From the IMG/VR virus record IMGVR_UViG_3300029224_000081, positions 1-25,990 of that record: a stretch of 25,990 nucleotides of DNA; one strand, written 5' to 3'. The notes below the pieces were generated by a model, which saw only the letters and a program-made list of their open reading frames with translations, had not been told where the DNA came from and did not search any database. This stretch comes from a virus (Duplodnaviria > Caudoviricetes). Shown here piece by piece: positions 1,985 to 19,179 of this stretch. The stretch's first letter is position 1, and each line of letters begins with the position of its first letter. A program made the position numbers and the translations under genes.

Positions 1985-2193
1985 TGGCTGCCCTGCTCAA
2001 ATCCCCATCGCTTTTAAGCTGGCCGCAACAGCAGGAAATCAACCGGCTGTCTGGACGTCGCGATATCCTGCATTCGCGCATACAGCGCCTGCGCCCGGCT
2101 GCTCACAGGCGTGTGGTTCTGGAGGCGCAATTGCGCCAACTCACAGACCGGCAATTAAAGCTGGAAACTGAATTATCAGAAGGGGATTTGTGA
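1984..2193 (+). CDS. hypothetical coiled-coil phage protein
   Basis: TAATG coupling to gemA, GAGG RBS. Confidence 0.7.
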   Translation: MAALLKSPSLLSWPQQQEINRLSGRRDILHSRIQRLRPAAHRRVVLEAQLRQLTDRQLKLETELSEGDL

Positions 2194-2195
2194 TG

Positions 2196-2534
2196 TCAGT
2201 TTGTCGGTGCCAGTTTATTCTTATTCACATACGTTTGGGTTGTTGCGCACAGCAGTTTCATCTGCAACGCACTCGCGCGTTTCAACGAGTATTGAGCAAT
2301 TGTGACATTTGCATTCAGGCCTGCGAGAACCTTACTTTCGTATCCGACAAAACGCTTTGTCACAAACGCCATCATAGCTTCGGCATCGATGGCGATATTG
2401 CACTTTTCTTCCAGTGCCACGGCCTTGGCCAAGGCGGTCATCTCGGTCATATACGTCAGGCCGTCCATTTTCTCCTGGGCAACACTGATATTGGTCAAAA
2501 ACATCAGGCCAGCAATCATCAAGAATACGCGCAT
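2196..2534 (-). CDS. small secreted/periplasmic protein (inverted moron)
   Basis: AAGGGAGAG RBS; Sec-type signal peptide MRVFLMIAGLMFLTNISVA-Q; two Cys; only credible minus-strand CDS in the window. Confidence 0.78.
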   Translation of the reverse strand: MRVFLMIAGLMFLTNISVAQEKMDGLTYMTEMTALAKAVALEEKCNIAIDAEAMMAFVTKRFVGYESKVLAGLNANVTIAQYSLKRASALQMKLLCATTQTYVNKNKLAPTN

Positions 2535-2546
2535 TTTTCTCTCCCT

Positions 2547-2575
2547 TTGACAAAAATTTCAAATCACCTTATCGT
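2547..2575 (+). promoter_or_regulatory. sigma70-type promoter for the c4-icd-ant cassette
   Basis: TTGACA (2547-2552), 17 bp spacer, TATCGT (2570-2575). Confidence 0.75.
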
Positions 2576-2594
2576 AGCGTTACTTTGCCCTCAA
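2566..2594 (-). promoter_or_regulatory. candidate promoter for the inverted moron
   Basis: On the minus strand, TTGAGG (2594-2589), 17 bp spacer, TAAGGT (2571-2566). Confidence 0.4.
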
Positions 2595-2645
2595 GGTAAA
2601 GTCGGGAATGCAAGCCCGTTCAACAGTAGGCGCTCGATGCGCCAC
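2582..2645 (+). promoter_or_regulatory. c4 a1/b1-type leader with upstream antisense target sites
   Basis: 5' hairpin ACTTTGCC/GGTAAAGT; b1 TGCAAG (2609-2614) in a CGGG/CCCG loop; a1 CAGTAGG (2624-2630). Confidence 0.7.
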
Positions 2646-2665
2646 GCTCCAAGCGTGGTTTTTTT
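2641..2665 (+). terminator. intrinsic terminator/attenuator upstream of C4 RNA
   Basis: CCACGCT-cca-AGCGTGG stem followed by T7. Confidence 0.75.
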
Positions 2666-2666
2666 A

Positions 2667-2743
2667 TGGTCGGGTGCAATGGGAGACCTTCGGGTCTGCC
2701 GTGGCCTACTGCACGGTCTTGCAACCCGTTGTTGCCCGGCCAC
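2667..2743 (+). ncRNA. c4: C4-like antisense RNA (P1/P7 C4, P4 CI class)
   Basis: Closing stem TGGTCGGG..CAATGGG / CCCGTTG..CCCGGCCA; AGACC-TTCG-GGTCT hairpin; CCGTG/CACGG hairpin with loop GCCTACTG (a'); unpaired TCTTGCAA (b'); both have complements upstream and downstream; lies upstream of an antirepressor. Confidence 0.85.
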
Positions 2744-2787
2744 CCTTTTGCAAGAGGGTGGCAAGGCGTTAATACAAACAGTAGGAG
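2739..2787 (+). promoter_or_regulatory. C4 downstream targets b2 and a2 over the icd-like RBS
   Basis: b2 TTGCAAGA (2748-2755) at the loop of a GCCACCCT/AGGGTGGC hairpin; a2 CAGTAGG (2779-2785) overlaps the AGGAG RBS. Confidence 0.78.
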
Positions 2788-2793
2788 ACATTT

Positions 2794-3006
2794 ATGTCCC
2801 ATTCCTCAAATCAGGTGAAGTATATCCGCGCCAGAAAACTGGTCAGCGCGGCGGTAAAGCCCTATCTCGACCAGCCCGATCCTTACAACCGGATACAAAT
2901 GCACCTCATTCTCACCGCCAGACAACAACCCAACCTTGCGCGGGCGCTTCAACGCATCGCCGCAAGATCGATTGCCATATCGGCAACAACCAAAAAGGAG
3001 AATTGA
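2794..3006 (+). CDS. small protein in the icd position of a c4-icd-ant operon
   Basis: AGGAG RBS covered by the a2 site; 70 aa; assigned by position only, no sequence homology recognised. Confidence 0.7.
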   Translation: MSHSSNQVKYIRARKLVSAAVKPYLDQPDPYNRIQMHLILTARQQPNLARALQRIAARSIAISATTKKEN

Positions 3007-3009
3007 GCC

Positions 3010-3666
3010 ATGACCACCGAACTCATAAATGTACCGTTTCACGACGAAGAAGTGATGATGATCGAGCACAATGGCGAACCCTATGTTCCGGTCAAACCGA
3101 TTTCAGACCGTCTTGGGCTGGAGTGGAGCCGTCAAAGAAAGAAACTTCGGGATGCTTTCAAGCGTTTCCCCACGGTACTTATGTACTGTGGAACAGGGGC
3201 CGGGGAACGCGAAATGACCTGTCTCCCACTGCGCAAATTGCCTGCATGGCTGTTCTCTATCAACGCAAACAAGGTGCGCCCGGACCTGAAGGCGGATGTC
3301 ATTCGCTACCAAAACGAATGCGACGACGTGCTGTGGCGGCACTGGTCGGGCGAATTGCATCACGATCTGGCACGTCTCAAGGATCAGAATTACAAACTCA
3401 TCCAGCATTGCCTGATGTCCAAACCGGTGTGGTCGAAGGTTTATTTTCACCAGCAGGCAGGCATTCCCAAGCAAATGGTGTGGCGTCATATGCGCCGCTC
3501 CCAGGGCGAAGTGGAAGAAGTGATCGAGGAAATGGAAAAGGTTGGCGTTATTTCCGGGGACGGCTGGTTTCAGATGTTGTGGAATTCGCAAGATCAATCT
3601 TGGGAACCGGAAGTCTGGCCCCGCGTCGGCTCCACACCGTCATTGCCCGCCCCCATTGGAGCTTAA
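3010..3666 (+). CDS. ant: phage antirepressor, P22 Ant N-terminal domain
   Basis: VPFH......HNGEPYVPVKPI...LGLEW..Q..KL, CLPLRKLPAWLFSINANKVRP, YQNECDDVLWRHW; AAGGAG RBS. Confidence 0.9.
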   Translation: MTTELINVPFHDEEVMMIEHNGEPYVPVKPISDRLGLEWSRQRKKLRDAFKRFPTVLMYCGTGAGEREMTCLPLRKLPAWLFSINANKVRPDLKADVIRYQNECDDVLWRHWSGELHHDLARLKDQNYKLIQHCLMSKPVWSKVYFHQQAGIPKQMVWRHMRRSQGEVEEVIEEMEKVGVISGDGWFQMLWNSQDQSWEPEVWPRVGSTPSLPAPIGA

Positions 3667-3669
3667 ACC

Positions 3670-3876
3670 ATGGCACCCAAACCGCAATATTCAGCCGGGA
3701 CCATTCCGGTTGCCTTTCGTCACGGCAATTGCCTGTCGATCATGGTCGCACGGGTGGATGGCAATCCATCCCACGATCAGTACGGCGACAGGTTAAAGCA
3801 AACCGGAGACACTTTGGAAACCACGCTGGACAAAATCAGAATGTGGCTTGCAGACCTGCCCCAAAGGCAGAATTAA
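3670..3876 (+). CDS. hypothetical protein
   Basis: GGAG RBS, 3 nt after the ant stop. Confidence 0.65.
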   Translation: MAPKPQYSAGTIPVAFRHGNCLSIMVARVDGNPSHDQYGDRLKQTGDTLETTLDKIRMWLADLPQRQN

Positions 3877-3901
3877 CACTCGCATTACAGGCAGGTGCCG
3901 C

Positions 3902-4147
3902 ATGACCAAGCGCCTGCCTGTCACCGATCATGCCGTGGTTCGATACCTTGAGCGCGTTGCCGCCATCGATATTGACGCCATCCGGCAACGCATTCATGAC
4001 CACACCCATCAGGCGTTAGCCCATGGTGCGCGTGGCATTGTCTCTAACGGTATTACCTACAGATTTGCAAAAGGCCGGGTTGTCTCTGTCTGGGTTGCCC
4101 AGGCTCATATGAAGCCTTTGAAGTGGAACAAGGGGGATGGCCGTTGA
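3902..4147 (+). CDS. hypothetical phage protein (VTDHAVVRYLERV motif)
   Basis: ATG 3902 after AGGTG; motif typical of small phage proteins; stop overlaps the next start. Confidence 0.72.
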   Translation: MTKRLPVTDHAVVRYLERVAAIDIDAIRQRIHDHTHQALAHGARGIVSNGITYRFAKGRVVSVWVAQAHMKPLKWNKGDGR

Positions 4148-6569: not shown

Positions 6570-7067
6570 ATGGCCTATACAGCCGATCAGCGTAAAAAGG
6601 CGCGTGAGGCTTTCGTCTTCAAACGCCAATCCCCGCCAACAATATCGTTGGCTATTGGCGTTCCGCCAACCACCATCCGCCGATGGAAATCTGATGCGCT
6701 CAGAAAAGGCGATGACTGGGGTGTGGCACGGTCCGCCAACCTGATAGCCGGTCAAGGCCTTGAAGCTGTGGTCATGACGGTTGTCGAAGATTTCGTCATG
6801 CTCACCCATGCGTCTATGGATGACATCAAGGGCAGTACCAGCGATGTCGACACCAAGGTAAAACAGCTTGCGTCCCTGGCTGACAGTATGACCAAGGCCG
6901 TCGCCGCCGCTGCCCGTGTTACCCCGAAGATTTCAGAATTGGGTGTTGCCCAGGATGTGTTGCAACGCATGTCATCGTTTGTTGCAGAAAACTATCCGCA
7001 ACATGCCGATGCTTTCCTTGAAATCCTTGAACCGTTCGGCCACGAAATTGTCGGGGCATATTCATGA
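6570..7067 (+). CDS. DUF1804 family protein, putative terminase small subunit
   Basis: MAY....R..AR..FVF, N-terminal HTH with RRWK...GDDW..AR, FLEILEPFG; directly upstream of TerL. Confidence 0.85.
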   Translation: MAYTADQRKKAREAFVFKRQSPPTISLAIGVPPTTIRRWKSDALRKGDDWGVARSANLIAGQGLEAVVMTVVEDFVMLTHASMDDIKGSTSDVDTKVKQLASLADSMTKAVAAAARVTPKISELGVAQDVLQRMSSFVAENYPQHADAFLEILEPFGHEIVGAYS

Positions 7068-8704
7068 ACGTCATTGTCACGGCTGCTGAATTCAAAAAAT
7101 CTCTCGAAGAAATGGCGGATATTTTCCGCAAGAAAATTGAACTGGAAGTTGAAGCCTTTGACGCTGATGATGATGCCCGCAAGGCACGGGTGGAAAAAGT
7201 CAAAGACCCTGTTCATGGCTATCGGTTTTTCTGTGAAACATACTTTCCGCACTATCTGACAAAAGGTCCGTCCGCACTTCACCTTGAGTTATTTGAGCGC
7301 CTGCCAAAAATGATTGCTGACCCACGCGGTATCAAGCTCAACCTTATCGCGCCGCGTGGTTCGGCCAAATCCACGCACATCGACCTTATGTTCCCGCTGT
7401 GGTGCACCGTTAACGGCTACAAGCATTACATCGGTTTGATAATGGATGCCTTCGAGCAAGCCGCTGTCATGATTGAAGCGCTTAAAGCTGAAATGGAAGT
7501 CAACCCGCGTCTGGCCTATGATTTTCCCGATATCATGGGCCAAGGTCGGACATGGCGCGAAGGCCTCATCATCACCCGCAACAATATCAAGATTGAGGGT
7601 TTTGGCACGGGAAAGAAAATACGCGGTCGCCGTCACGGTCCCTATCGTCCGGACCTGATCTTGATGGATGATATTGAAAACGACGAGGCGGTTAAAAGTC
7701 CAGAACAGCGCAAGAAGCTGGAGAACTGGATTTCCAAAGCGGTGCTGGAACTGGGGCCAACCGATGGCACCATGGATGTTCTGTTTGCGGGAACAATTTT
7801 GCATTTTGATGCGGTCATTGTCCGGTTCTCCAAAAAACCCGGCTGGCAGACTATCCACTTCCAGGCGATCATGAATTGGCCGGACCGTATGGACCTGTGG
7901 GACCGTTGGGAAGAAATTTATATCAACGAGGGCGAACCCGCTGCTGATATGTACTATGCTGAAAACAAAGCCACTATGGATGCCGGGGCAATCCTGAATT
8001 GGCCGGACAATCACACGCTGTTGTTCCTGATGAAAAAGCGCGCGGGCGAACATGCAGCTTTTGCATCAGAATATCAGAACAAGCCGATCAATGAGAATAA
8101 TGGCTTCCAAAACCTTACCTTCTGGGTACGACGCAAGCCCAACCTGATCCATTTTGGCGCGATTGATCCTTCTCTGGGCAAAAAATCAAAAGGTCGCGAT
8201 CCTTCGGCCATTCTGATTGCCGGTGTTGATCCTGTCACCAAGGAGCTGGATATTCTGGAAGCCCGCATCAGAAGACGCCTGCCCGATATCATCATATCAG
8301 ACACCATCGCCTTGCAACGCGAATACCAATGTGTCCTGTGGTTCGTCGAGGCGGTGCAGTTTCAGGAGTTCCTGCGCACAACATTGATGGCGACAGCTGC
8401 CAGCCAGGGCGTTGCTTTGCCCGCCATCCCGGTCATTCCGTTTGCTGACAAGCACTTGAGAATTGAGCGATTGCAACCGCCCACGGCCAGCGGTCTTATC
8501 CGGTTCCATAAAGGCCAATCTACGCTTATTGACCAGTTGCAGCAATTCCCGGATGCCGATCATGATGACGGCCCGGACTGTCTCGAAATGCTGTGGGAAA
8601 ATGCACTCAAATACAGCCGGGGCGGGGCTGCTGACATTGGCGGCATTCAAAGTGCCCCGTCCAACCTTGGCGGTGGTTTGAGCGATTACAGGCTAGGAGG
8701 TTAG
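7064..8704 (+). CDS. terminase large subunit
   Basis: YFPHY, Walker A APRGSAKST, IRGRRHGPYRPD, Walker B LILMDDIEN, nuclease AIDPS and HDDGPDCL. Confidence 0.95.
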   Translation: MNVIVTAAEFKKSLEEMADIFRKKIELEVEAFDADDDARKARVEKVKDPVHGYRFFCETYFPHYLTKGPSALHLELFERLPKMIADPRGIKLNLIAPRGSAKSTHIDLMFPLWCTVNGYKHYIGLIMDAFEQAAVMIEALKAEMEVNPRLAYDFPDIMGQGRTWREGLIITRNNIKIEGFGTGKKIRGRRHGPYRPDLILMDDIENDEAVKSPEQRKKLENWISKAVLELGPTDGTMDVLFAGTILHFDAVIVRFSKKPGWQTIHFQAIMNWPDRMDLWDRWEEIYINEGEPAADMYYAENKATMDAGAILNWPDNHTLLFLMKKRAGEHAAFASEYQNKPINENNGFQNLTFWVRRKPNLIHFGAIDPSLGKKSKGRDPSAILIAGVDPVTKELDILEARIRRRLPDIIISDTIALQREYQCVLWFVEAVQFQEFLRTTLMATAASQGVALPAIPVIPFADKHLRIERLQPPTASGLIRFHKGQSTLIDQLQQFPDADHDDGPDCLEMLWENALKYSRGGAADIGGIQSAPSNLGGGLSDYRLGG

Positions 8705-8708
8705 CGCC

Positions 8709-10064
8709 ATGGAAGAAGTATCAAATCAAGAGCGCAAGAACCTGAAGAAAGATGCCGGAAGGCTCATTGCCAGTGCCCGCAATGATGTCACCATCCCCCA
8801 CTTCAATGATGTGTTTTTCAACACAGACCCGACCATATTATCGCGTGGCGGTGGCAAAGGTCTTGAAATCTATGAAGAGATCGAACGCGACACCGAAGCC
8901 TATGCATTGTTACAAAAGCGCAAATCCACTCTCATAGAGCGTGATTGGGAAGTCGTGGCCGGAGGCGACAGTGCCCGAGATCTCGAAGCGGCGGAATTTG
9001 TCACCCAGCAATTCAAACAAATCCCTTTTGAAAGAATGTGCGAGAACCTTCTGGATGCGACCTTGAAAGGCTATTCGATTATTGAGATCGTCTGGCAGCG
9101 GTTCGAGAACAGGATAATTCCAAAGAAAATCGTATCGCAAGAACAACGCCGCTTTGTGTTTGATGAACACTGGCAGCCGCGCCTTTTGACATGGACAAGC
9201 ATGTTCAAGGGCGAAGAATTGCCCGCCCGCAAATTCATGGTTCATCGCTTTGGCGTTAAAGGCAATCGCCCCTACGGTCTGGGCATGGGCACCCGGCTGT
9301 TTTTCCCGGTTATGTTTAAACGCGAAGGTATAGCCTTCTGGTTGAAGTTTCTGGAGAAATTTGCCAGCCCCACTGTCGTCGGCAAAACACCGTATGGCAC
9401 GTTAGAGGGCGATCAGCGCAAATTGTTAGACACTCTCCAGCGTTTTCATTCGGATGGTGCGATCACGGTTCCGCTGGACGTTGAAGTTGCTCTGCTGGAA
9501 GCCACACGAAGCGGATCAATGTCCGGTTTTGAATGGTGTAACTACTGGGATAAGCAGATGTCTATCTGTATTCTCGGTGAAACCCTGACCACGGATATTG
9601 GCTCTGTCGGCTCTTTGGCCGCCGCACAGGTTCATTCCGGCGTTCTCGACAAACTGGTTGATAGCGACAGTGATTTACTGTCAGACACGCTTTATGAACA
9701 ACTCATCACGTGGATGATAGAATATAATTATCCCGGAGCCGCCGTGCCACGGGTTGTTCGTCGCCGCCCCAAAAATGAAAAAGCAGAAGCGGAAACCAAC
9801 CAGGCCAAGGCCGAAGCCTCGCTATCGCACAATGAGGCACTTCAAGCCAAAATGGCATTCATCTCAATTATCAACAATGATGAAACCGCCACATCCATAT
9901 TGATGGCATCCGGTCTGGTCGATGGGCTTGAACCTGAAGTGGTGGCAGAACTTGTCAATATCCGGTCTGAATTCAAAGCCCAGGCACCGGCTGCAATTGA
10001 TATCCCGGCCCTGGACGACGACACCGCCGCCTTTGCAGCCTACAGGCTTAAAAAAAAACATTAG
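8709..10064 (+). CDS. portal protein, DUF935 / Mu gp29 family
   Basis: LLDATLKGYS..EIVW, PYGLG, FWLKFLEKFASP, ILGETLTT, GSLAAAQVH; AGGAGG RBS; ends just after an A9 run. Confidence 0.93.
   Translation: MEEVSNQERKNLKKDAGRLIASARNDVTIPHFNDVFFNTDPTILSRGGGKGLEIYEEIERDTEAYALLQKRKSTLIERDWEVVAGGDSARDLEAAEFVTQQFKQIPFERMCENLLDATLKGYSIIEIVWQRFENRIIPKKIVSQEQRRFVFDEHWQPRLLTWTSMFKGEELPARKFMVHRFGVKGNRPYGLGMGTRLFFPVMFKREGIAFWLKFLEKFASPTVVGKTPYGTLEGDQRKLLDTLQRFHSDGAITVPLDVEVALLEATRSGSMSGFEWCNYWDKQMSICILGETLTTDIGSVGSLAAAQVHSGVLDKLVDSDSDLLSDTLYEQLITWMIEYNYPGAAVPRVVRRRPKNEKAEAETNQAKAEASLSHNEALQAKMAFISIINNDETATSILMASGLVDGLEPEVVAELVNIRSEFKAQAPAAIDIPALDDDTAAFAAYRLKKKH
10050..10058 (+). other. A9 slippery run, candidate -1 recoding site joining portal to MuF
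   Basis: The -1 frame opens right after TAA 10049-10051 and runs without a stop into ORF 10151..11617. Confidence 0.55.
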
Positions 10065-10150
10065 CATTTTCTGAAACAGACAATAAAGATGCCGTTGATG
10101 ATCTGGCCAGTGAAGCTCTGATCGGCTCACAAGCCTATTTCAAATCCCGC

Positions 10151-11617
10151 ATGGATGATTTGCGTATCGCCGTTGAGCAAGCCGCCAGTTATGACGATGC
10201 TGCAGCGTTCGCCATCATCAAGGGGGCTACGTGGGCCAGCGATGCCTTGGGCGATTACCTTGCCGATGGTTTGCTTCTGGCAGCCCTCATGGGTCGAGAT
10301 GCGGTCTTTGGCGAAATGGCAGGTGGATCCGACACCGATCTTTTTGCCGATGACACCGCGTTCGGCCAGACCTTCAAAAAGCAGATTGAATTTCTTGAAC
10401 AAAAGCAGGTCAAACCAACCAAACGCTGGACCGATGTCTTGCGTGGCGATCATGACCGCGCTTTTGTCGTCGCCGGGGCAACTGATCTCGACATGCTCAA
10501 GGACTTTCAAAATTCGCTGGTAAAATCACGCACAGACGGCACCTTGTTCAAAGATTTCCAAAAGGATTTTGACCGGATTGTCGAAAAATACGGCTGGGAG
10601 TTTAACGGTGACCGCACGTGGCGGGCACGTACAATCTTTGAAACCAACATGCGCACGTCGTATATGGCGGGTCGCCTGGCCCAGATGCGTGATCCCGACG
10701 TGGTCAAAGCCCGGCCCTTCTGGCAATACCGTCACGGGGTGACGCGTACACCCAAACGGCCCAGACCCGCTCATCTGGGCTGGCACGGCCTGACCTTGCC
10801 CTGGGATGATCCCACGTGGCAAACGATATTCGCGCCCAACGGCTGGAAATGTTCATGTGCAATCGTGACATTATCTGCCCGTGATATGGAACGCGAAGGC
10901 AGAAGCAGCCCGGACAAGCCGCCTGTTTTAGAAACTGAAAGATATTTCGACCGCTCGTCAGGTGAATTTGTCGATAAAGTCAAAGATATCGATTATGGTT
11001 TCGAGTACATGCCCGGTGATTTGTGGGAGCGTGGCCTTGTGCCATCTGAACTCATACGCGAAGCCGGTGTCATTTCGCGGACAACCGGTCTCATCGTCGA
11101 AATTGATAAACCGCGTGGCATTGCTGAATTGATAGAAGATGCTGTCGCCTTCAAATCGAAACCTTTGAAAAAGGACAAATCCGACAACACCTATATTGAT
11201 GCCTTCCTGAAACCGTTTGGTGCGACGCGAACAAAGGCTGTCCGGTTTGTCGATAAATCCGGCACATCCATTCCCATTTCAGCTGAGCTATTCAAAGACC
11301 GCTCCGGCACGGTCAAGGTTAAAAAGCGTGGCCGGGAAATCTATACGGCAATGATCGCTGAAGCCATCCGCGATCCTGATGAAATCTGGCTGGGCGTGCG
11401 CGGTTTGAAATTGCCGGATAGTGAGGCTGTTGAATACATTATCGACCGCCGCTACATTCGCGTCGATCCCGATACCGGTATTATCATCGTGTTTCAGATG
11501 GGAGAAAACGGCTGGGAAGCTGTCACAGCCTTTCAACCCAATGCCAAGGGCAAGACAAGTTTCGGCGCGCTGGACGGGCGGCGCGGCGGCAAGCTGATCT
11601 ATGAGAGAAAAAAATAA
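10151..11617 (+). CDS. MuF (Mu gp30) minor head protein with C-terminal PBECR2-like nuclease domain; frame open from 10052
   Basis: HDRAFVVAGA, IFETNMRTSYMAGR, PRPAH..WHG, PNGWKCSC; C-terminal KRGRE..AEAIRDPDEIW..RRYI..VTAF..RRGGKLIYER. Confidence 0.88.
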   Translation: MDDLRIAVEQAASYDDAAAFAIIKGATWASDALGDYLADGLLLAALMGRDAVFGEMAGGSDTDLFADDTAFGQTFKKQIEFLEQKQVKPTKRWTDVLRGDHDRAFVVAGATDLDMLKDFQNSLVKSRTDGTLFKDFQKDFDRIVEKYGWEFNGDRTWRARTIFETNMRTSYMAGRLAQMRDPDVVKARPFWQYRHGVTRTPKRPRPAHLGWHGLTLPWDDPTWQTIFAPNGWKCSCAIVTLSARDMEREGRSSPDKPPVLETERYFDRSSGEFVDKVKDIDYGFEYMPGDLWERGLVPSELIREAGVISRTTGLIVEIDKPRGIAELIEDAVAFKSKPLKKDKSDNTYIDAFLKPFGATRTKAVRFVDKSGTSIPISAELFKDRSGTVKVKKRGREIYTAMIAEAIRDPDEIWLGVRGLKLPDSEAVEYIIDRRYIRVDPDTGIIIVFQMGENGWEAVTAFQPNAKGKTSFGALDGRRGGKLIYERKK

Positions 11618-11690: not shown

Positions 11691-11719
11691 AATATAATAG
11701 ATAAGAGGTAAAAAAACAA
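11691..11719 (-). promoter_or_regulatory. sigma70-type promoter for the candidate small RNA
   Basis: On the minus strand, TTGTTT (11719-11714), 17 bp spacer, TATATT (11696-11691). Confidence 0.55.
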
Positions 11720-12174
11720 TGGCCGGATTGAGTTTGAAAGTAACGATCAAGGACAAGGATATTTCCCGCAAGCTGGATCGGGCGCTTGAAAAAATTGAAA
11801 ACCCGGTAGCATTTTACAAAAACGTTGGCGAACATGTGATCAAAACCACTGTTGAGCGTATTGCCGATGAACAAACACCCGATGGTCAGGCATGGCAACG
11901 CCTGTCACCGGTCACGCTGGCCGCGCGCGCCAAACGCGGAACCGGTTCAACCATCTATCGTGAATATGGCGATTTCATCGGAACGATCAATTATGAAGCC
12001 AGCGATGATAATTTGATCTGGGGGTCGCCGGATGTGCGCGCCCGGATTTTCCAACTTGGCGGAAAAGCCGGGCGCGGTCAGTCTGTGACATTGCCAGCAC
12101 GCGAATATCTTGGCCTGTCTCCACAGGATGAAACCATCATTCTGGAAATGGCAGAAGATCATGTGGGCCTGTAA
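11719..12174 (+). CDS. virion morphogenesis protein (Mu G/gp31, phage tail S family)
   Basis: EQTPDGQAWQRLSP.T, ARIFQLGG.AGR, LPAREYLGLS..D; GAGGT RBS. Confidence 0.9.
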   Translation: MAGLSLKVTIKDKDISRKLDRALEKIENPVAFYKNVGEHVIKTTVERIADEQTPDGQAWQRLSPVTLAARAKRGTGSTIYREYGDFIGTINYEASDDNLIWGSPDVRARIFQLGGKAGRGQSVTLPAREYLGLSPQDETIILEMAEDHVGL

Positions 12175-18783: not shown

Positions 18784-19179
18784 ATGACCAAAGAAACCAA
18801 GACCCCAACCGTGGATACAGATGTCAATGTTACGGGCTTTCTTGCCCGCCTACGGGCATTTAAAAAATCCAATGAACGCGATGTGACCGTAACCCTGCCG
18901 GAGTGTGGTGAAACGGTGACCTACCCCGGATTTGTCAGCCACGCAACGATCATGAAGGTTTTCAAAAAATCGGGCGGTCAAAAGGGCACAGCCAAAATGG
19001 CCTCAGTGGCGATTGCAACCTTATGTCGTTTTGGTCCCGAAGGTGAACAGATTTCCCATACGGATGTGGCCGAACTTCTGCCAAACCGTGACGTAACCTT
19101 CCTGTCAGGCAAATGCCTGGGCGTTGAGGATGATGATGACGATGGAGACGACGACGAGGGAAACGCACTCAGCGGCTAA
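18784..19179 (+). CDS. tail assembly chaperone (P2 E / lambda G-like)
   Basis: AAGGA RBS; lies between tube and tape measure; slippery G GGA AAC near its end. Confidence 0.85.
   Translation: MTKETKTPTVDTDVNVTGFLARLRAFKKSNERDVTVTLPECGETVTYPGFVSHATIMKVFKKSGGQKGTAKMASVAIATLCRFGPEGEQISHTDVAELLPNRDVTFLSGKCLGVEDDDDDGDDDEGNALSG

Follow-up and report, generated by a model that had tools for sequence, protein, structure and literature searches.

How might a Mu-like phage produce a MuF protein from a reading frame that opens inside the last codons of the portal gene and has no start of its own with a ribosome-binding site? The question is raised by a stretch of 25,990 nt from a transposable phage with a contractile tail (IMG/VR virus record IMGVR_UViG_3300029224_000081; "the window" below means this whole stretch) and concerns the junction between a portal gene of the Mu gp29 type and the frame behind it, which encodes a portal-tail module, a MuF domain and a PBECR2 domain. 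We propose that the host RNA polymerase slips on a run of nine adenines (A9) at this junction, so that a single gene would yield both a short portal and a portal fused to MuF. From the comparative evidence given below we estimate the probability of this reading at about 0.7. A preliminary description of the window had suggested programmed recoding at the run, fusing the portal to the MuF-PBECR2 frame, and conservation among relatives strongly supports that suggestion.

The junction in the window

The portal gene ends in CTT AAA AAA AAA CAT TAG, with A9 at positions 10050–10058. The −1 frame has a TAA at 10049–10051 and is then open from stop to stop over 10052–11617 (521 amino acids, N-terminal KKTLAFSETDNK). 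The sequence and coordinates first reported for these elements were confirmed. The features of the junction are the following:

8709..10064, plus strand: Mu-type portal gene (gp29/DUF935; PF06074, E 2.5e-97; phrog_113), with a strong Shine-Dalgarno (SD) sequence
10046..10059, plus strand: putative recoding site GCTT-A9-C; the family pattern, from flank frequencies and conservation, is G-C-n-pyrimidine, A9, C or G
10062..10064, plus strand: zero-frame stop TAG, which closes the short portal one codon past A9
10072..10074, plus strand: third-frame stop TGA of the frame 9904–10074, which would terminate products with two added or one lost A
10064..10092, plus strand: weak stem, unconserved and likely no stimulator
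10052..11617, plus strand: −1 frame with linker, portal-tail module, MuF and PBECR2, without a start of its own that has a ribosome-binding site
10094..10318, plus strand: helical module, a homologue of the C-terminal tail found on Mu-type portals and predicted to dock on MuF
10502..10864, plus strand: MuF domain core (PF04233, −1 frame residues 151–271, E 2.2e-11; phrog_220)
11201..11605, plus strand: PBECR2 domain (PF18810, E 1.1e-27), predicted ribonuclease (RNase) fold

The short portal product has 451 amino acids (50.9 kDa) and lacks the usual C-terminal tail. The predicted fusion of 969 amino acids would be identical whether it arose by one added A or by a −1 shift of the ribosome. A9 is the sole A or T run of at least eight in the whole window. 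The ATG at 10151, at which an open reading frame (ORF) can be drawn in the −1 frame, indeed has no ribosome-binding site, as it shows no pairing with the anti-SD sequence (+3.4 kcal/mol, versus −11.1 kcal/mol at the portal start); the value at the start of the gpG gene is −7.2 kcal/mol. The stem formerly pointed out behind the run (10064–10070 with 10086–10092) does fold, at −5.1 kcal/mol, but it is weak and not a conserved stimulator: with z-scores of −0.5 over 40 nt and −1.9 over 30 nt it does not clearly exceed shuffled sequences. Another record (L131) also has A9. It is 99.95% identical to the window over 9,885 nt (5 mismatches, no gaps) and may not be independent of the window's assembly.

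Conservation of the run and of two coding states

Relatives were drawn from three collections and 216 loci were classified, the window included: 29 were without one of the two genes, 59 lay outside the clade and 128 inside. The clade rule was made without reference to the A-run, the 59 outside loci (among 187 complete ones) having the tail on the portal or a tail score below 42. None of these 59 has A9 at the portal-MuF junction. The 128 clade loci were collapsed at 90% portal identity into 77 representatives. Single-protein scans of viral contigs had returned 0 and 2 loci, and an alignment query was needed to recover the relatives.

A run of at least seven A's is present at the junction in 72 of the 77 non-redundant clade loci, and it is exactly A9 in 65. 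No other run of eight or more A's exists in the 659,079 nt of the clade loci, so that the A9 at the junction is not a matter of chance. The run occupies codon phases 0, 1 and 2 in 47, 4 and 14 loci, respectively. Forty-seven of the A9 loci are split with a −1 offset like the window, and 18 are in-frame fusions; the retention of both run and offset in homologues, which the preliminary description had named as a check, was thus observed in 47 loci among the 77. Of 80 proteins recovered in a search for longer homologues, 79 are in-frame portal-MuF-PBECR2 fusions, and KKK, KKN or QKK was found at the column of the window's break in 72 of the 79. Two even samples of 401 host genomes each provided 14 clade loci with a readable junction, many overlapping the earlier loci (7 split A9, 5 fused A9, 1 fused A10 and 1 run-less split), and a plasmid search recovered only distant portals, with less than 40% identity among the matches listed. 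The four deposited phage genomes of the group, RR1-B, RcWaterboi, RcapMu and EBPR siphovirus 4, are all split with a −1 offset (A9, A9, A8 and A9, respectively), and GenBank annotates two genes in all four. RcapMu and RcWaterboi are described as plaque formers (bioRxiv 2021.08.04.455094).

The bases and frames around the run bear the marks of selection for both products. The zero-frame stop lies at most three codons past the run in 38 of the 47 split relatives, and in 46 of them no stop interrupts the −1 frame across the run. No start codon was present before the tail in 28 of the 47, and a start with an SD was present in one. Substitutions in the −1 frame of split loci, counted over 19 disjoint pairs, fell on third, first and second codon positions in the proportion 139:55:44. 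In the in-frame A9 genes, a stop occurs within three codons in the frame reached by one added A (the +1A frame) in 16 of 18 cases, for a background of 0.17 and for 7.0 of 18 expected from synonymous-codon resampling. In the other shifted frame, 8 of the 18 genes have such a stop (3.8 expected), and each of the 18 has one in at least one shifted frame. On a tree of 83 rows, made by a quick method with a midpoint root (L037 and L183 were omitted as too short), the fused-with-run label showed 11 gains or losses, at least 9 of them forced by starred branches; some of the 11 changes are borders with the outgroup or with run-less rows. Because A9 is kept, stops are placed out of frame and the state flips repeatedly on the tree, both the short and the fused products are likely made, whichever frame is the default. 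The idea that a minority of portal subunits carry MuF does not follow from these data: the fusion is the default in 18 of the 65 A9 relatives, and the fused share may therefore be high or reversed.

Some clade members depart from the common pattern. The RcapMu portal (L003) ends in CTA C A8 versus CTC A9 in RcWaterboi and in the R. capsulatus prophage L136, with equal length and offset; its A8 may be a natural weaker site or a base-order error. Runs of 7, 8, 10 or 11 A's, some with other offsets, were seen in L039, L112, L118, L132, L157, L159, L176, L177, L183, L212 and L339, and these records may represent assembly errors, decayed prophages or real variants. In-frame portal-MuF fusions without an A-run were seen in L024, L127, L173 and L178, and also in L055 and L059, which are outside the clade and without PBECR2; every subunit would carry MuF in such fusions unless trimmed. 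A run-less split lineage (L026, L133, L158, L030, L137, L163 and L338) starts tail-MuF-PBECR2 at an ATGA/GTGA overlap with the portal stop, and several of its members have Cys-rich residues at the new N-terminus. Homologues that lack the run and start MuF by themselves, which had been given beforehand as a sign against recoding, do exist in this one lineage, through the overlap, but the A9 loci have no conserved start or SD.

A scan for the DNA motif GCTC-A9-S-NN-TGA fell on the portal-MuF junction in 33 of 110 loci. No other long-ORF pair was found at the motif in these 110 loci, and an extension to other portal families is not shown. Most of the 77 non-portal matches (among L216–L325) come from a small number of contexts that recur, in which the frames on either side are short; they are possibly T-tracts on the opposite strand.

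Slippage, frameshifting and other explanations

According to the mechanism that we propose, the RNA polymerase would add an A at A9 in part of the transcripts. The unslipped transcript would give the 451-amino-acid portal and the +1A transcript the 969-amino-acid portal-tail-MuF-PBECR2 fusion; in the in-frame relatives, which have the mirror arrangement, the same +1A event would produce the short portal. Transcriptional slippage and −1 ribosomal frameshifting had at first been considered equal. Both do fit the junction, but the evidence leans to slippage, although the choice of the polymerase over the ribosome is the step that we infer from sequence alone. The length of nine A's is constant in every codon phase and close to the 9–10 bp hybrid, which favours slippage. 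Over the 65 A9 loci, base −1 is never G, base −3 is C in 60, base −4 is G in 52 and base +1 is never T, and GCTC precedes the run in 29 of 47, 4 of 4 and 6 of 14 loci of phases 0, 1 and 2, respectively. An SD-like motif upstream of the run was found in 1 of the 65 (controls had a mean of 8.8), and no window near the run folds consistently in them (downstream mean z −0.37, pseudoknots not modelled). The phase-independent flanks, the lack of an SD and the lack of a conserved stem are the reasons for which slippage by the RNA polymerase is favoured over −1 frameshifting. The junction combines a homopolymer of about nine A/T, independence of codon phase and selection for both products, as expected of a slippage site. 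Two candidate stimulators were rejected as unsupported, a nascent-RNA hairpin upstream of the run (mean z −0.25) and an internal SD (1 of 65).

Programmed −1 ribosomal frameshifting on A_AAA_AAA (or A_AAA_AAC/G) would give the same two products and is, in our opinion, unlikely. A_AAA_AAA is a proven shift site in an insertion sequence (IS) cluster, where it is accompanied by a stem-loop (PMC4066793). The heptamer stands in the portal frame in 65 of 65 A9 loci, though this is unavoidable for any A9; these loci show 0 and −1 states only, and the strongest stop signal of the fused genes sits in the −1 frame. Yet seven in-phase A's would suffice for a ribosomal shift, and nine are found in all three phases, with flanks that are conserved whatever the phase. 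A_AAA_AAG occurs in only 3 of the 65 loci despite AAG being the preferred Lys codon (AAG:AAA = 997:501 elsewhere in the same genes), and neither an upstream SD (1 of 65) nor a conserved downstream structure provides the stimulator. The tRNA-Lys genes were given no weight: both anticodons were detected in 2 of 5 host genomes and one in the other 3, by an exact pattern that can miss genes.

Phase variation of the DNA, in which replication slippage would toggle A9 and A10 and switch between short portal and fusion, appears very improbable. It could account for the 7 of 72 run-bearing non-redundant loci with 7, 8, 10 or 11 A's and for two A10 records that are in frame (L112 and L339), but the 47 split and 18 fused loci all have A9, so that run length does not set the state; the length also varies far less than would be expected of a toggling tract, and, no start being conserved, MuF would not be made at all from a genome fixed in the split state. 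We give slightly less credit still to translation of the downstream frame from the ATG at 10151 or by reinitiation, the Lys run then being a protein signal. The lineage of L026 and L030 does make tail-MuF-PBECR2 separately by the ATGA/GTGA overlap, and two genes are annotated in the four GenBank phages. The A9 loci, on the other hand, have no conserved start or SD, their coding signature is already present upstream of any start, and the first tail helix lies upstream of the ATG at 10151; a Lys signal would need neither AAA-only codons nor the change between KKN and QKK with phase. Least credible is that the split comes from a misread homopolymer in sequencing, or from an inactivating mutation of a single prophage, and that one ORF of 969 amino acids is the true gene. 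The preliminary description had retained this alternative, and the 79 in-frame fusion proteins could speak for it, but 47 non-redundant A9 loci share the offset, as do phages that form plaques, and the in-frame relatives have A9, not A10, together with selected out-of-frame stops. Conservation at the level of the family leads us to reject it.

Several observations weigh against slippage by the RNA polymerase or against the selection that we deduce for both products. A_AAA_AAA is contained in every A9, in all phases (65 of 65), and −1 shifting fits every locus; the +1A transcript and the −1 shift yield the same protein. A +1 offset, which two added A's could rescue, was found in 0 of the 65 A9 loci. 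A small excess of loci (8 of 65) folds at z < −2 just downstream of the run. The 18 fused loci represent about eight lineages and the statistics overstate their independence, earlier flips may have left behind the stops of the second shifted frame, and phage mosaicism can blur the tree. Finally, 3 of the 77 representatives (L024, L173 and L178) are run-less in-frame fusions, which implies that some lineages can do without a recoded short portal.

The portal tail, MuF and known systems

The window has the gene order terminase, portal, MuF frame, gpG, protease, capsid, sheath, tape measure and baseplate. The genes on either side of the junction are:

7064..8704, plus strand: terminase large subunit (phrog_38), 5′ of the portal
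11719..12174, plus strand: gpG-like virion morphogenesis gene (PF05069), 3′ of the MuF frame

A PF06074 gene thus lies between terminase and MuF, as in the Mu gp29 type of portal, and the top matches, in sequence and in fold, are the Mu and JBD30 portals. The portal of an in-frame relative (P0010) matched the folds 8rka and 9khx. Elsewhere in the window, a GGGAAAC heptamer at 19158–19164, at the end of the gene 18784–19179 before the tape measure gene, with a −1 frame open to about 19322, looks like the usual ribosomal frameshift of the tail assembly chaperone G/GT. A 571-codon ORF (2190–3905) without Pfam or PHROG match overlaps smaller likely genes and is probably a shadow frame.

The start of the ORF at 10151 had been likened to the tail of Mu gp29 portals. 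The likeness is real and extends further upstream, as 24 Mu-type portals have C-terminal tails that align with the segment 10094–10318, the helix before the ATG at 10151 included. In Mu-type loci this tail is read in frame with the portal, and MuF has its own gene. The Mu portal may undergo C-terminal trimming in the course of head assembly, a point on which no argument here depends. The neck structures of Mu and JBD30 have 369–405 of 512–526 portal residues modelled, so that the short portal would cover the ring-forming part. In a model of the in-frame relative P0010 (mean predicted local distance difference test, pLDDT, 79; predicted template modelling score, pTM, 0.41), the Lys run falls in a predicted disordered linker (447–469) between the portal and the helical tail module, followed by MuF and PBECR2. 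The profile scores of MuF and PBECR2 in the window (44.9 and 97.1 bits) exceed the curated cut-offs. A nuclease effector had been announced, and the match to the PBECR2 profile stands. PBECR RNases are characterized by a His (Arg in one family) within the N-terminal helix, together with a C-terminal Ser/Thr (PMC5512222). No conserved His was found here (best column 16 of 65), and a conserved Lys/Arg cluster and a Thr (59 of 65) are present. PBECR2 is best called a predicted nuclease-like domain, after its Pfam label.

A sequence search of the PDB found no MuF structure. A predicted complex of tail and MuF from a Mu-type locus (L068) scored 0.78 (best control 0.00), and the score mark applied was reached by 116 of 157 solved pairs and by 2 of 215 mismatched pairs. 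Contact agreement in these runs was at least 11% and partner pLDDT at least 35. One of the three runs scored 0.00 and speaks on the other side. The prediction supports docking of the tail on MuF. Mu-type phages would thus dock MuF on the portal tail, and the A9 clade would join tail and MuF and attach them to a share of the portal subunits by means of the slip site. In our model both forms of the portal would enter one ring and the tail module would fold onto MuF, in line with the contact predicted for Mu-type phages, in which the portal bears the tail and MuF is separate. The likely outcome would be a ring with MuF-PBECR2, inside the head, on only part of its subunits, whose share would be set by the slippage rate and the default frame. 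A more far-reaching version, which we offer tentatively and consider doubtful, is that the A9 site replaces the non-covalent docking of MuF and determines the number of tail-MuF-PBECR2 copies among the 12 portal subunits; clonal virions would then differ in their injected payload, and lineages would retune the dose by flipping the default frame while keeping the run.

If slippage at A9 is confirmed, the few genes under programmed recoding are joined by the portal, which is a core virion protein and usually invariant, and a tailed phage provides an example of productive slippage by the RNA polymerase. In dozens of prophages the annotation shows two genes, or one, where both products are likely made. 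The split and in-frame mirror forms, both with A9, constitute a natural experiment on the need of the head for MuF cargo, and culturable members of the clade exist (RcapMu and RcWaterboi). The predicted contact between tail and MuF is a testable answer to how MuF proteins, the carriers of many phage effectors, attach to Mu-type portals.

No account of a conserved recoding site at the portal came to light in the literature searched, which included few subscription journals and no supplements. The word "portal" has no occurrence in PMC3711429, apart from supplements that possibly list a portal cluster, or in the searched part of PMC5009743, and the parts covered of PMC3447690 and PMC11445458 contain nothing on portal-tail processing. 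The GenBank record of RcapMu (JN190960) has a note on RcapMu36/37, by which the portal is short, readthrough would be possible with a frameshift, and a good ribosome-binding site is lacking at the MuF-like ORF. This note concerns one genome and gives no site, mechanism or conservation. The same record indicates a "potential −1 frameshift" in RcapMu35 (L003 position 2062), a small gene immediately upstream of its portal; in the window, the portal follows the terminase with no gene in between.

A close known parallel is Thermus thermophilus dnaX (tau/gamma), in which, as here, a nine-A/T run with nearby stops in both shifted frames provides a long and a short product for an oligomeric machine (PMC5009743). 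Slippage on 9 A/T in Thermus thermophilus dnaX is reported at about 50% (PMC5009743; PMC3711429), and two-ORF dnaX genes with poly-A, the reverse arrangement, have been described (PMC3711429). Unlike dnaX, the present case concerns a phage portal whose default frame flipped repeatedly in one family, and slippage is deduced from sequence. Poly-A/T also joins two ORFs or truncates one in Shigella mxiE, spa33 and mxiA and in the magnesium-chelatase cluster, for which in-frame fused homologues exist as they do here (PMC3711429; PMC5009743). Those are cellular genes and none encodes a virion protein. In phage late genes, recoding gives rise to C-terminal extensions of capsid and tail-tube proteins. 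It also sets the share of an extended structural protein in the case of the tail assembly chaperone G/GT (PMC3711429). Unlike the A9 site, these chaperone, capsid and tube cases use phase-locked ribosomal heptamers in other genes.

The portal-MuF-PBECR architecture of polyvalent proteins (Iyer et al. 2017, PMC5512222) has the same domains in the same order and a predicted virion-packaged RNase. They are described there as plain fusions, the main text of that article containing "frameshift" 0 times; here most members are split and would be joined only by recoding. MuF follows the portal in Mu gp29/gp30, JBD30 gp32 and SPP1 gp6/gp7, as it does in the window. SPP1 gp7 is reported to bind the portal with 1–2 copies per capsid (PMC5576092), which suggests that dose matters; the in-frame forms of the A9 clade suggest that the share need not be small. 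In Mu-type phages, every portal subunit bears the tail, whereas in the A9 clade it has passed to the MuF side of the putative slip site.

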